Shown here in pieces: positions 1,622 through 49,857 of a stretch of 64,000 nucleotides of DNA. Location of the stretch: assembly GCF_003334405.1 (NCBI RefSeq), contig NZ_QOWM01000004.1; one strand, given 5' to 3'. The position numbers were made by a program, and so were the translations under genes. The notes beneath the pieces were generated by a model. That model was not told where the DNA came from. It searched no databases and worked only from the letters and a program-made list of their open reading frames with translations. Positions within the stretch are counted from its first letter, which is position 1. Every line of letters begins with the position of its first letter. Source of the stretch: Escherichia coli. GTDB taxonomy: Bacteria; Pseudomonadota; Gammaproteobacteria; Enterobacterales; Enterobacteriaceae.

Positions 1622-3462
<1,841 letters not shown>

Positions 3463-3490
3463 ATCCTTTTCAGCCGCGTATTGGCTTGTT

Positions 3491-3507
3491 TGCAAAGCGG
3501 ATGCCAG
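3491..3507 (-). promoter_or_regulatory. sigma54 (-24/-12) promoter of rutA operon
   Basis: Reverse strand reads TGGCAT-ccgct-TTGCA (GG-N10-GC spacing) about 30 nt upstream of rutA ATG. Confidence 0.7.
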
Positions 3508-3569
3508 TTTTTAAAAAGTTAATGTTATTAATCTGTTAACATTACGTTATCTAAAATATCTGGTAAAAA

Positions 3570-3587
3570 GTGGACTAAACGGTCAAA
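3570..3587. promoter_or_regulatory. RutR operator-like palindrome in rutA-rutR intergenic region
   Basis: tggactaaacggtcaa, reverse complement TTGACCgtTTAGTCCA, resembles the RutR box TTGACCAnnTGGTCAA. Confidence 0.55.
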
Positions 3588-3692
3588 ACAGTTGCACATA
3601 AAACATGCATCTGTGCGCGATGAGAGTGCAGAAGGTCGAGGCCGGGCGGGGGTTTTGCTATCCTGTTGCCAATCTACAAGAGGGGAGAGCGC

Positions 3693-4331
3693 ATGACGCA
3701 AGGCGCAGTGAAAACAACGGGTAAACGTTCGCGCGCAGTAAGCGCGAAGAAAAAAGCGATTCTTAGCGCAGCACTGGACACTTTTTCACAATTCGGTTTT
3801 CACGGCACAAGGCTGGAGCAGATCGCAGAGTTGGCGGGTGTTTCAAAAACCAATCTGCTGTATTACTTTCCGTCAAAAGAGGCGCTGTATATTGCCGTGC
3901 TGCGGCAGATTCTCGATATCTGGCTGGCACCGTTAAAAGCGTTTCGTGAAGATTTCGCCCCGCTGGCGGCGATCAAAGAGTACATCCGTCTGAAGCTGGA
4001 AGTCTCACGCGATTATCCGCAGGCTTCGCGCCTGTTCTGTATGGAGATGCTGGCAGGCGCGCCGCTGTTAATGGATGAACTGACGGGCGATTTGAAGGCA
4101 TTAATTGATGAGAAATCGGCGCTGATTGCCGGTTGGGTCAAAAGCGGCAAACTCGCGCCGATTGATCCGCAGCATTTGATTTTTATGATTTGGGCTTCCA
4201 CTCAACATTACGCCGATTTCGCCCCTCAGGTGGAGGCGGTGACAGGCGCGACGTTGCGCGATGAGGTATTTTTCAATCAAACGGTTGAAAACGTGCAGCG
4301 GATTATTATTGAGGGGATTCGACCACGTTAA
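3693..4331 (+). CDS. rutR: RutR, TetR-family transcriptional regulator of rut operon
   Basis: ORF track 3666..4331; start trimmed to MTQGAVKTTGKRSRAVSAKKK (212 aa) with AGGGGAGAG SD; TetR HTH. Confidence 0.93.
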   Translation: MTQGAVKTTGKRSRAVSAKKKAILSAALDTFSQFGFHGTRLEQIAELAGVSKTNLLYYFPSKEALYIAVLRQILDIWLAPLKAFREDFAPLAAIKEYIRLKLEVSRDYPQASRLFCMEMLAGAPLLMDELTGDLKALIDEKSALIAGWVKSGKLAPIDPQHLIFMIWASTQHYADFAPQVEAVTGATLRDEVFFNQTVENVQRIIIEGIRPR

Positions 4332-47750: not shown

Positions 47751-48317
47751 TTATACTCCATAGTCAGATGACGACTTTCCCAGCATGCGCTTCAGAGTGT
47801 CGTCTTTATCGATGAAATGATGCTTCAGGGCCATAAATCCGTGCATAACGGACAGTACTACGACGCTCCACGCGAGCCAAAAATGCAGGGCACCGGCAAA
47901 GTCTGCCTGTGCGCCAGCGTCGGCAAGGGTCGCGGGGACGTCAAACCAGCCAAAAACGCTGATCGGTTTACCATCGGCAGTTGAGATCAGATAGCCGCTG
48001 ATGCCGATGGCGAAAAGCAATAGGTACAATGCGAGATGTCCAGCTCTTGCGGCAAGACGAGTCATGGGCGAATAACTCGGCAGCGGACCCGGCGGTGGAG
48101 ATATGACACGCCACAGAACGCGAATAACCAGCCCCATCATTAACAAAATACCGATGCTTTTATGCAGTTCGGGTGCTTTGTGATACCAGCCATCGTAATA
48201 ACTGAGCGTGACCATCCACAGACCTAAAGCAAACATGCCGTAGACAATAATTGCGCTTAGCCAATGGAAGGCCGCAGATATAACACCATAGCGTTCAGGG
48301 GTATTTGTGAATGACAT
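47751..48317 (-). CDS. yceJ: YceJ, cytochrome b561 family membrane protein
   Basis: ORF track 47751..48392; start trimmed to MSFTNTPERYGVISAAFHWLSAIIVYG (188 aa). Confidence 0.92.
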   Translation of the reverse strand: MSFTNTPERYGVISAAFHWLSAIIVYGMFALGLWMVTLSYYDGWYHKAPELHKSIGILLMMGLVIRVLWRVISPPPGPLPSYSPMTRLAARAGHLALYLLLFAIGISGYLISTADGKPISVFGWFDVPATLADAGAQADFAGALHFWLAWSVVVLSVMHGFMALKHHFIDKDDTLKRMLGKSSSDYGV

Positions 48318-48577
48318 AAGTGCATCCAAAACGAATTTGCGAGAGAAAGAAAATGGCGTGTCGGAGAATGAATTGCAACACAAAAATAACAAATTGAATG
48401 ATATTTATTTTTATTTCAATAATTTTGAATTAATAATGAAAGAATCTTCATAAGTTTAGTGGGTTCAGCATCAGAGATGTCTGGTGAGTGCTGTAGAAGC
48501 AGGAATAATCTCATTCAATTTTTCACGCTAAATGAAAGGGAGATTAAATATTTGTCAGTTTATGTCAGTGCGGAAAA

Positions 48578-48718
48578 CTAAAAATAAAACACATAGATCA
48601 GATCCATAATTGCCAACAATCCCCAGAGAAAAAGATAAAGCATCAGATGCTCGCGAATATTATTGATGAGATAGTGCAACAGCCGACGCATTAAATACTC
48701 CTGTAAAAACGGCCTCAT
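48578..48718 (-). CDS. yceO: YceO, 46-aa hydrophobic small protein (below the 60-aa ORF-track cutoff)
   Basis: Manual reverse-strand translation [46 protein letters not shown]; 20 nt downstream of solA stop on same strand. Confidence 0.75.
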
Positions 48719-48738
48719 TCTGGAGGCCGTAATGATGA

Positions 48739-49857
48739 TTATTGGAAGCGGGAAAGCCTGAATGGCGTCAAATCAAAATCGCTTTTTTTGTCTTGCGCAA
48801 AATCGGCAGCTATTTCCCCTAAAACTGACGCAAATTTAAAACCGTGCCCACTCAGGCCGGTAATGAGCAGTGTATTATCGTGGCCGGGTAGGGTATCGAT
48901 AATAAAATCTTCGTCAGGCGAATTATCATAGGTGCAGGCAGCGCCGTACAGGCAGCAACCGATACCCGGCAATACATTGCGCAAGAACGGGAAGGCTTCT
49001 GACCCATCACTGGCCACTTCGGCAAACGGAACTCGTTCATCCGCTGAATGGATAACCTGGCCTCCGTTATGTTTGCCAATCTTCAACGCGTCGTTTTCTG
49101 CCGGAAAACCATAATATTGATCGCCATTGGGCAGTTCACCGGTAAACGCCGGGAATTTATTCTTCACGCTATAGCGGCCATCGGCCTGATACCAGGCAAA
49201 TACTTTGCGTACGGGCTGGACAGGCAGCTCCGGGAGCAGGTCTTTTACCCATGTTCCCGCGCAGACAATCGCTTTTTTCGCCTGATACTCACCGTCAGCC
49301 GTTTCAATAGTTACGCCATCATCGTCATGACGAATTGCGGTGACCGGGCAGTTGAACAGTTGCGCACAGCCCGCTTCCTTCGCCAGTTGGATCCAGGTTT
49401 TAATCGCCAGTTCGCTGCGCAAAAAACCGGAATCAGTTTCAAATAAGCCGATGTAGTTGTCCGGGACGCGTATTTCCGGCCAGCGGGCCATAATCCCTTG
49501 CGCATCGAGCTTTTCAACGTTGAGTTGCCATTGTTCGGCGCTGTGGGCGACGTTGGCGAGAAATGTGGAATCAGCCGGGCCAAGGTTAATGACGCCAGAG
49601 CGTACAAAAATGGGATCTTCTTCGTTGTGGCGGGAGAGTTCATCCCACAGCGTTTGCGCGCGGAGGACCAGCGGGACATACTTTTCGCCTTCACCATAAG
49701 CATGGCGAATTAATCGCGTATCGCCGTGGTGGCTGCCGTGTTGATGCGGTGGCATATGGGCGTCGGTCATTAGCACGTTTAAACCGGCGCGGGTTGCATA
49801 ATACCCGGCGGCAGCGCCTACGGAACCGCTGCCAATAATGATGAGATCGTATTTCAT
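48739..49857 (-). CDS. solA: SolA, FAD-dependent N-methyl-L-tryptophan oxidase
   Basis: ORF track 372 aa [34 protein letters not shown] (FAD-binding GxGxxG). Confidence 0.96.

Follow-up and report, generated by a model that had tools for sequence, protein, structure and literature searches.

The open reading frame (ORF) found at 48578..48718 on the minus strand of an Escherichia coli contig corresponds to yceO (b1058). This gene of enterobacteria is already known and is passed on vertically; it is thus not an overlooked ORF, and it is a translated gene that is under purifying selection as a protein. The explanation that best accounts for the observations, to which we assign as a whole a probability of roughly three in four, is that this known gene has a start giving 37 codons, is transcribed by read-through from solA and encodes a protein with a single membrane helix that would act by binding a partner. 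As yceO has already been named, annotated, classified in Pfam and detected as a protein, the discovery value is small, and the additions to what was known of the gene are a corrected start, a conserved hairpin in front of yceO and the exclusion of YceJ and YceI as obligate partners.

The window, i.e. the whole stretch of 64 000 nucleotides that was analysed (E. coli assembly GCF_003334405.1, contig NZ_QOWM01000004.1), was listed for ORFs with the cut-off lowered to 20 amino acids, whereby a frame of 46 codons with an ATG start was obtained at the above position. Its coordinates and translation agree exactly with those of a reverse-strand ORF proposed in an earlier reading made from the sequence alone. 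This sequence-only reading had also placed the frame 20 nt after solA and had described an AT-rich gap before yceJ; the solA stop codon (TAA, 48739..48741) is indeed followed by 20 nt up to the first ATG, and the gap comprises 260 nt up to the yceJ ATG with a GC content of 32%, as compared with 50% for the whole window. What had been termed ‘yceO-like’ turned out to be yceO itself. The region 48300..48800 is identical to E. coli K-12 MG1655, in whose curated record (NC_000913.3) the same ORF is given as yceO, b1058, 1119307..1119447, ‘DUF2770 domain-containing protein YceO’, so that 1070729 has to be added to a window position to obtain the MG1655 coordinate, and exact matches were found both for the 46-amino-acid sequence (UniRef YCEO_ECOLI, UniProt) and for the 37-amino-acid sequence (RefSeq ‘YceO family protein’, WP_001253418.1). 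Compared with the YceO of K-12 (b1058; PF10968; WP_001253418.1), the feature is thus the same gene without any sequence difference, and it is the gene models that disagree, with 46 codons in K-12 and UniProt versus 37 in PGAP and Pfam. The yceO region was present in 5419 of the 5426 complete E. coli genomes, where PGAP labels it ‘YceO family protein’, and the match to Pfam DUF2770 (PF10968; E 3e-22, score 78.7) aligned positions 1–36 of the 36-position model with residues 10–45 of the 46-amino-acid form. The view that the gene is under-annotated was consequently not borne out, given the b1058 entry in the curated MG1655 record, the PGAP CDS, the Pfam family and the detection of the protein. 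The gene order around the site in the window is pyrC-dinI-bssS-solA-yceO-yceJ-yceI / trhO, and the features that are discussed below are compiled in Table 1.

Table 1. Position of yceO, its putative control elements and solA in the window.
Feature	Coordinates	Strand	Basis
Conserved yceO CDS, 37 codons + TAG	48578..48691	−	PGAP CDS WP_001253418.1; Pfam DUF2770; MRR start; pN/pS
Nine-codon N-terminal extension MRPFLQEYL, probably untranslated leader	48692..48718	−	b1058 model in NC_000913.3
Shine-Dalgarno sequence AGGAG, 6 nt before the second ATG	48698..48702	−	Sequence; anti-SD pairing
GC-rich hairpin ACGGCCUC-CAGAAU-GAGGCCGU in the solA-yceO spacer	48709..48730	−	Folding; shuffle test
T-run (UUUUU) overlapping the last hairpin pair, weak terminator tail	48705..48709	−	Sequence
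solA (N-methyl-L-tryptophan oxidase), upstream gene and probable source of yceO transcription	48739..49857	−	Annotation

Conservation and synonymous-site analysis, which had been named as a check on the proposed ORF, showed the frame to be kept across genera. A pattern scan using one genome per species yielded 16 loci, distributed over Escherichia species, Lelliottia, Atlantibacter, Enterobacter, Intestinirhabdus and an unclassified Enterobacteriaceae bacterium. When 1.84 billion representative proteins were searched with a profile at a cut-off of E < 1e-3, 57 relatives were returned, which were short gene calls or fragments save for a few read-through calls of up to 145 amino acids, and the core motif M-R-R-L...NN[IV]REH...LW..LA..D..Y...F was found in all 27 relatives whose sequences were read. 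Twenty-one loci were examined in detail, namely the 17 of the first set and four more distant ones on the contigs of four of the most divergent members (L019, L020, L021 and L023), and neither stops nor frameshifts interrupted the yceO frame in any of the 21; a few frameshifted alleles and alleles with in-frame expansions do occur among thousands of E. coli assemblies. The order bssS-solA-yceO was preserved in every locus examined, with a single copy of yceO at a fixed position across genera and solA always on its strand, and solA and yceO were directly adjacent in all loci other than L023 and L024, in which one GerE-family gene is inserted between them. In ten representative lineages pN/pS averaged 0.27 in the yceO frame, whereas shifting the frame gave 1.21 and 2.37. 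Of the 37 sites per codon position, 20, 10 and 35 were variable at positions 1, 2 and 3, respectively. Between genera, where synonymous sites are saturated, the YceO peptide is 59–73% identical. Such a frame-specific substitution pattern, taken together with the conserved length and start, is the signature of a translated gene under selection.

Some length variation was seen within the part encoding the transmembrane (TM) helix. In-frame Leu-Tyr expansions by one or two units (MLYLYLFLW and MLYLYLYLFLW; P0036, P0052) affect the codons for LMLYLFL at ∼48625..48642, a two-residue deletion is present in P0010, and C-terminal frameshifts occur in several E. coli assemblies. The CTTTATCTTTTT stretch appears to be prone to slippage, and the variants may represent either sequencing errors or real alleles.

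The spacer between solA and yceO contains a GC-rich hairpin, the stem of which starts 8 nt past the solA stop codon and which is followed by a U-run. The stem comprises 8 bp, six of them G-C pairs, and was present in both the minimum free energy (MFE) and the centroid fold; the MFE of the 47-nt spacer was −14.5 kcal/mol versus −6.2 ± 2.2 kcal/mol for dinucleotide shuffles (z −3.7). A GC-rich hairpin was found in the solA-yceO spacer of every lineage examined with wholly different stem sequences, for instance CAGGCUCCG/CGGAGCCUG in Enterobacter, GCUCCGG/CCGGAGC in Lelliottia and GCCCGG/CCGGGC in strain RIT691, and the hairpin was more stable than shuffles in eight of ten lineages (Fisher combined p 2e-9, the lineages not being fully independent). 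A good or reasonable T-tail is seen in Escherichia, Lelliottia, L020 and L021, whereas that of Enterobacter is short and Intestinirhabdus and RIT691 have none; the E. coli run consists of five T residues including the terminal paired T. A consensus terminator scan did not call the E. coli hairpin, which direct folding does show. Taken together, these features suggest an element that is conserved in structure and not in sequence and that is terminator-like.

Neither solA nor yceO is listed in the curated Term-seq 3′-end table of PMC7815308, which low expression could explain, and no 5′ or 3′ end near yceO was found in the searchable curated Term-seq tables. The sole solA entry in supplementary file 2 of that paper is a Rho-termination region inside solA (MG1655 1120419, 167 nt from the solA start; PMC7815308), which corresponds to ∼49690 (−) in the window; if real, premature termination at this site would further limit read-through into yceO. 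In L019, the hairpin is preceded by an A-run but not followed by a T-run and thus reads as a terminator for the trhO strand. This locus lacks the yceJ-yceI pair, and the last 15 nt of yceO are shared with the convergent trhO gene (locus 2929..3114 and 3100..4164), and a trhO transcript ending at that hairpin would be antisense to the whole of yceO.

With respect to transcription of yceO, the minus strand from 48200 to 49100 did not yield any sigma-70-like promoter. The possibility that the 3′ end of solA harbours a conserved promoter was also considered and rejected: third-position identity was 0.40–0.47 in the last 50 codons as against a gene-wide mean of 0.50, i.e. there was no excess of synonymous conservation. 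We infer that read-through from the solA promoter is the most economical reading. Devoid of a promoter of its own, yceO would be transcribed at a low level by RNA polymerase reading from solA through the leaky terminator-like hairpin, and this would explain the very low level of YceO in LB. Co-transcription with solA had previously been called probable, and the shared strand and the lack of a detectable promoter for yceO are in line with this; the hairpin and T-run had, however, gone unnoticed. As the first ATG lies inside a terminator-like hairpin between the two genes, co-transcription requires read-through of the terminator, and in this modified form it is plausible judging from the sequence.

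An alternative that concerns transcription only is that yceO possesses its own promoter and is independent of solA, the hairpin serving as an efficient solA terminator. This is the less probable arrangement, albeit one that deserves to be kept in mind, since a stable hairpin with a T-run separates the two genes in most lineages, L023 and L024 keep yceO despite the gene between it and solA, and a TATAAT-like box precedes the yceO ATG by 30 nt in Atlantibacter. It is nevertheless difficult to reconcile with the mere 17 nt that lie between hairpin and ATG in E. coli, the lack of a sigma-70-like site on this strand, the absence of synonymous-site constraint at the solA 3′ end and the T-tails that are weak or absent in several genera. 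As to Atlantibacter (L010, L013 and L015), its solA-yceO spacer measures 87–89 nt and is ∼40 nt longer than in other genera, and the box past the hairpin (TATAAT or TAAAAT, ∼30 nt before the yceO ATG) may be a lineage-specific promoter; the SD of yceO is weak in this genus.

The PGAP CDS of 114 nt (48578..48691) begins at the second ATG of the frame, and several lines of evidence indicate that this is where translation starts. An ATG-CGN-MGN (‘MRR’) start equivalent to that at 48691 was present in all 17 loci of the first set, giving a length of 37 codons (38 in one locus), and the more distant members have 37–41 codons and start with MRRL, MIRF or MIFRKL. All 21 loci examined in detail have a start at the ATG equivalent to 48691, preceded by unrelated sequence. 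Possession of the first ATG is confined to E. coli, E. albertii and a single related strain; its position is occupied by TTG in L005–L007 (E. whittamii and two other lineages), and in the detailed loci it has no counterpart outside Escherichia, where the in-frame upstream peptides are unrelated and the upstream frame runs into a stop after 1–44 codons (one codon upstream in Intestinirhabdus). Nor is there any homology among the N-terminal extensions of those gene calls from the profile search that are too long. Calculated anti-SD pairing amounts to −6.9 kcal/mol for the second ATG (AGGAG, 6-nt spacing) versus −1.7 kcal/mol for the first, which has no SD, and a purine-rich SD-like sequence occurs at the same place in Enterobacter, RIT691 and L021. 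The A and U of the first AUG (48716..48718) end the hairpin loop, and its G opens the 3′ arm. Opening energies of the local structure, calculated for a 181-nt context, were 16.5 and 13.7 kcal/mol for the two ATGs, values that are similar and thus uninformative.

There is therefore good support for a predicted start at the second ATG (48691; MG1655 1119420) and a protein of 37 residues, and YceO is likely to be made mainly or exclusively in this form. The placing of the K-12 start at 48718 most likely reflects the choice of the longest ORF and would be an artefact of annotation. The extension MRPFLQEYL would make the longer form heavier by about 1178 Da. Accordingly, the 46 codons of the sequence-only reading are open as it stated, but the conserved unit consists of the 37 codons from the second ATG, the nine N-terminal codons being without counterpart outside Escherichia. 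The opposing possibility that the 46-codon K-12/UniProt model is right in E. coli, either by a start at 48718 or by dual starts producing Escherichia-specific isoforms of 46 and 37 amino acids, seems to us improbable. From the first ATG onwards no stop interrupts the frame in the window or in the other Escherichia loci, the longer model is used by the curated MG1655 record and by UniProt, the TTG of three Escherichia lineages can still initiate, and the hairpin could conceivably be melted by ribosomes that end solA translation 20 nt further upstream and then re-initiate at this ATG. Set against this are the lack of an SD at the first ATG (−1.7 kcal/mol) and its embedding in the 8-bp GC hairpin, its replacement by TTG in L005–L007 and its absence outside Escherichia, the start of both the Pfam and the PGAP model at residue 10, and replacements within the extension (E to G, Y to I or L) that reveal no clear constraint.

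In published work, an 11-residue peptide of the 46-codon form was recorded, but solely with a plasmid designed for expression of the 46-codon ORF (PMC12529367); because the construct was engineered it says nothing about the native start, and the first ATG could thus still be used in E. coli. There was no mention of yceO in the TRAINSPOTTER supplements or in the text of the Onc112 preprint. The disagreement between 46 amino acids (K-12/UniProt) and 37 amino acids (RefSeq/PGAP, Pfam) is of practical consequence as it affects the design of peptides, tags and expression constructs, and the N-terminal peptide of the 2025 proteomics study is possibly absent from native YceO. The correction of the start to 37 codons is well supported and one of the few additions to this known gene.

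The sequence-only reading had predicted a single TM helix, and a Kyte-Doolittle profile with a 19-residue window is consistent with this, as it peaked at 2.15 for residues 25–43 of the 46-amino-acid form. AlphaFold2, run with a family alignment of 22 sequences, modelled one continuous helix from residue 2 to 36 with a mean pLDDT of 93.6, in which the first ∼15 residues are basic or polar and residues ∼16–37 are hydrophobic up to the C-terminus. With its 37 (or 46) residues and one predicted TM helix, YceO fits the size and helix limits of the class of small inner-membrane proteins, reportedly defined by Hemm et al. in 2008 as having no more than 50 residues and one TM helix. According to the positive-inside rule, the basic N-terminal part of the model implies an N-in, C-out orientation resembling that of a tail anchor: the short stretch MRR...NNIREH would be placed within or next to the cytoplasmic face, residues ∼16–37 would span the inner membrane and the C-terminus would be located at the periplasmic face. 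In 22 diverse sequences N11, R13, W23 and D30 are invariant, and N10, H15 and L22 are nearly so. The invariance of an Asp two-thirds along the membrane helix, and of the N-x-R at the cytoplasmic boundary, is indicative of a specific contact and not of generic hydrophobicity. Contact is likely to be made by N11 and R13 on the cytoplasmic side and, within the membrane, by W23 and the buried D30; these four are also the residues to mutate in order to probe function. By analogy with other small membrane proteins, we tentatively propose, at somewhat less than even odds, that YceO binds a larger inner-membrane protein by helix-helix contact and changes its activity or stability, the resulting phenotype of which would be acid or envelope stress tolerance. 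The searches gave no family match for YceO in NCBIfam, PADLOC or PHROGs, and no relatives were obtained in the PDB by a family-profile search of its sequences.

The gene neighbourhood in 24 loci did not indicate a partner for YceO. Although yceJ, encoding a cytochrome b561 homologue, and yceI adjoin yceO in most genera, both are absent in six of the 24 loci, all of which keep yceO; among the six are E. albertii (L004), RIT691 (L017), L019 and L023/L024. YceJ and YceI as obligate partners were rejected on the grounds of these six loci, and as yceO is kept in lineages that lost yceJ-yceI, a partner is to be sought elsewhere. The most constant neighbour of yceO is solA, and since its product is a soluble oxidase, the linkage between solA and yceO is probably transcriptional and not physical. 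In the most divergent loci, L023 and L024 (41 amino acids, MIFRKL...), the gene between solA and yceO is of the GerE/LuxR type (locus 2223..2852), and a convergent gene for an AI-2E-family transporter is located past yceO.

At 48553..48567 (−), 10 nt past the yceO stop codon, there is a direct repeat in tandem, cTGACAtaaacTGACA, behind which a conserved TTTAA is found. The cTGACAtaaacTGACA repeat was found in 17 of the 18 loci with yceJ-yceI downstream and in none of the six without; in the window two matches were found versus 0.41 expected, the other lying inside pyrC. As this tandem TGACR motif tracks yceJ-yceI, its assignment to yceO was rejected. The repeat, which precedes the yceJ ATG by ∼235 nt, has the look of a cis element belonging to the region upstream of yceJ-yceI and may be an operator for a regulator binding direct repeats or a pair of tandem −35 boxes.

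In a proteomics paper of 2025, a markerless yceO deletion, a chromosomal SPA-tag and pBAD strains were constructed, and chromosomal YceO-SPA was visible by Western blot in LB at a level estimated to be at least 10 000-fold below that of pBAD induction; YceO was also among the proteins detected by top-down mass spectrometry (PMC12529367). The gene is dispensable under laboratory conditions. A 26.5 kb deletion that includes yceO arose in a benzalkonium-evolved clone, and E. coli strain S9 (L002, locus 1748..2574) represents a natural yceO knock-out, in which an IS1 at the solA 3′ end truncates solA and removes the N-terminus of yceO, the remainder being marked by PGAP as an incomplete DUF2770 pseudogene. 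YceO has been referred to as an ‘acid stress small protein’ (PMC8765455; PMC12997748; PMC10680302). One database source labels a variant as ‘small protein involved in biofilm formation and acid stress response’. The acid label is said to go back to work of 2010 by Hobbs, Astarita and Storz, who screened bar-coded deletion strains. Further entries in published lists comprise a reduced yceO transcript in intracellular communities of UPEC, the occurrence of yceO in the gene table of one paper's gallium-sensitivity screen and a yceO mutation in a motility-evolution experiment.

A more far-reaching combination of these elements, which we regard as speculative and doubtful in its entirety, is that the hairpin is a translation-sensitive leaky terminator, YceO is coupled to SolA and made from the second ATG, the K-12/UniProt model is wrong by nine residues and D30 is the acid-responsive element of a putative membrane complex. 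A ribosome finishing solA, 8 nt before the stem, would hinder folding of the hairpin, and the output of YceO would be either proportional to SolA translation or restricted to conditions of tight coupling between transcription and translation.

It was also considered whether YceO might be a membrane-damaging peptide resembling a type I toxin and silenced by an antisense RNA or by mRNA structure, given its small size, hydrophobicity, very low expression and the hairpin near the translation start. We hold this to be very improbable. The gene is single-copy, vertically inherited and fixed in position across genera; it has no match in PADLOC or PHROGs and none in Rfam on either strand apart from a spurious sub-threshold match to a lncRNA; and promoter-like sites on the opposite strand are at chance level, with one found versus 2.1 expected. 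Moreover, YceO was overexpressed from pBAD for mass spectrometry and Western blotting without reported toxicity (PMC12529367), and a specific interaction accounts better for the purifying selection that acts on particular polar residues. Least credible of all, and counted as already refuted, is a chance open frame in the solA 3′ UTR or the yceJ upstream region without a functional product, since, even if ORFs of this size are common (the window has 220 ATG-initiated ORFs of at least 46 codons, so that ORF length carries no evidential weight), the frame-specific substitutions, the length and start conserved across genera, the Pfam family and the published detection of both tagged and native YceO all argue against it.

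Among known systems, the cTGACAtaaacTGACA repeat past yceO resembles a Pho box on the opposite strand, from which it differs in having a period of 10 bp in place of 11 bp. Leaky intrinsic terminators are known between genes of one operon, and the yceO hairpin shares with them a GC-rich stem-loop and a short U-run that are placed just past a stop codon and just before the next SD; it differs in that the U-tract is weak or absent in some genera and in that no 3′ end was present in the Term-seq tables searched. The type I toxins TisB, IbsC, ShoB, Ldr and Hok are similar to YceO as regards a small hydrophobic helix and mRNA structure near the start codon, whereas yceO differs by its single copy, fixed synteny, conserved polar residues and tolerated overexpression, with no antisense RNA having been detected. 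The closest parallel to the proposed partner-binding role is provided by AcrZ, MgtS, MgrB, CydX and KdpF, small single-pass inner-membrane proteins of E. coli that are accessory or regulatory subunits. Of these, MgtS and MgrB have been described as small membrane proteins in the same study in which YceO was detected (PMC12529367). YceO lacks sequence similarity to this group (no NCBIfam or PDB match) and has no adjoining conserved partner gene, but it has in common with its members a length of less than 50 residues, one hydrophobic helix, a low or condition-dependent abundance and a link to stress.
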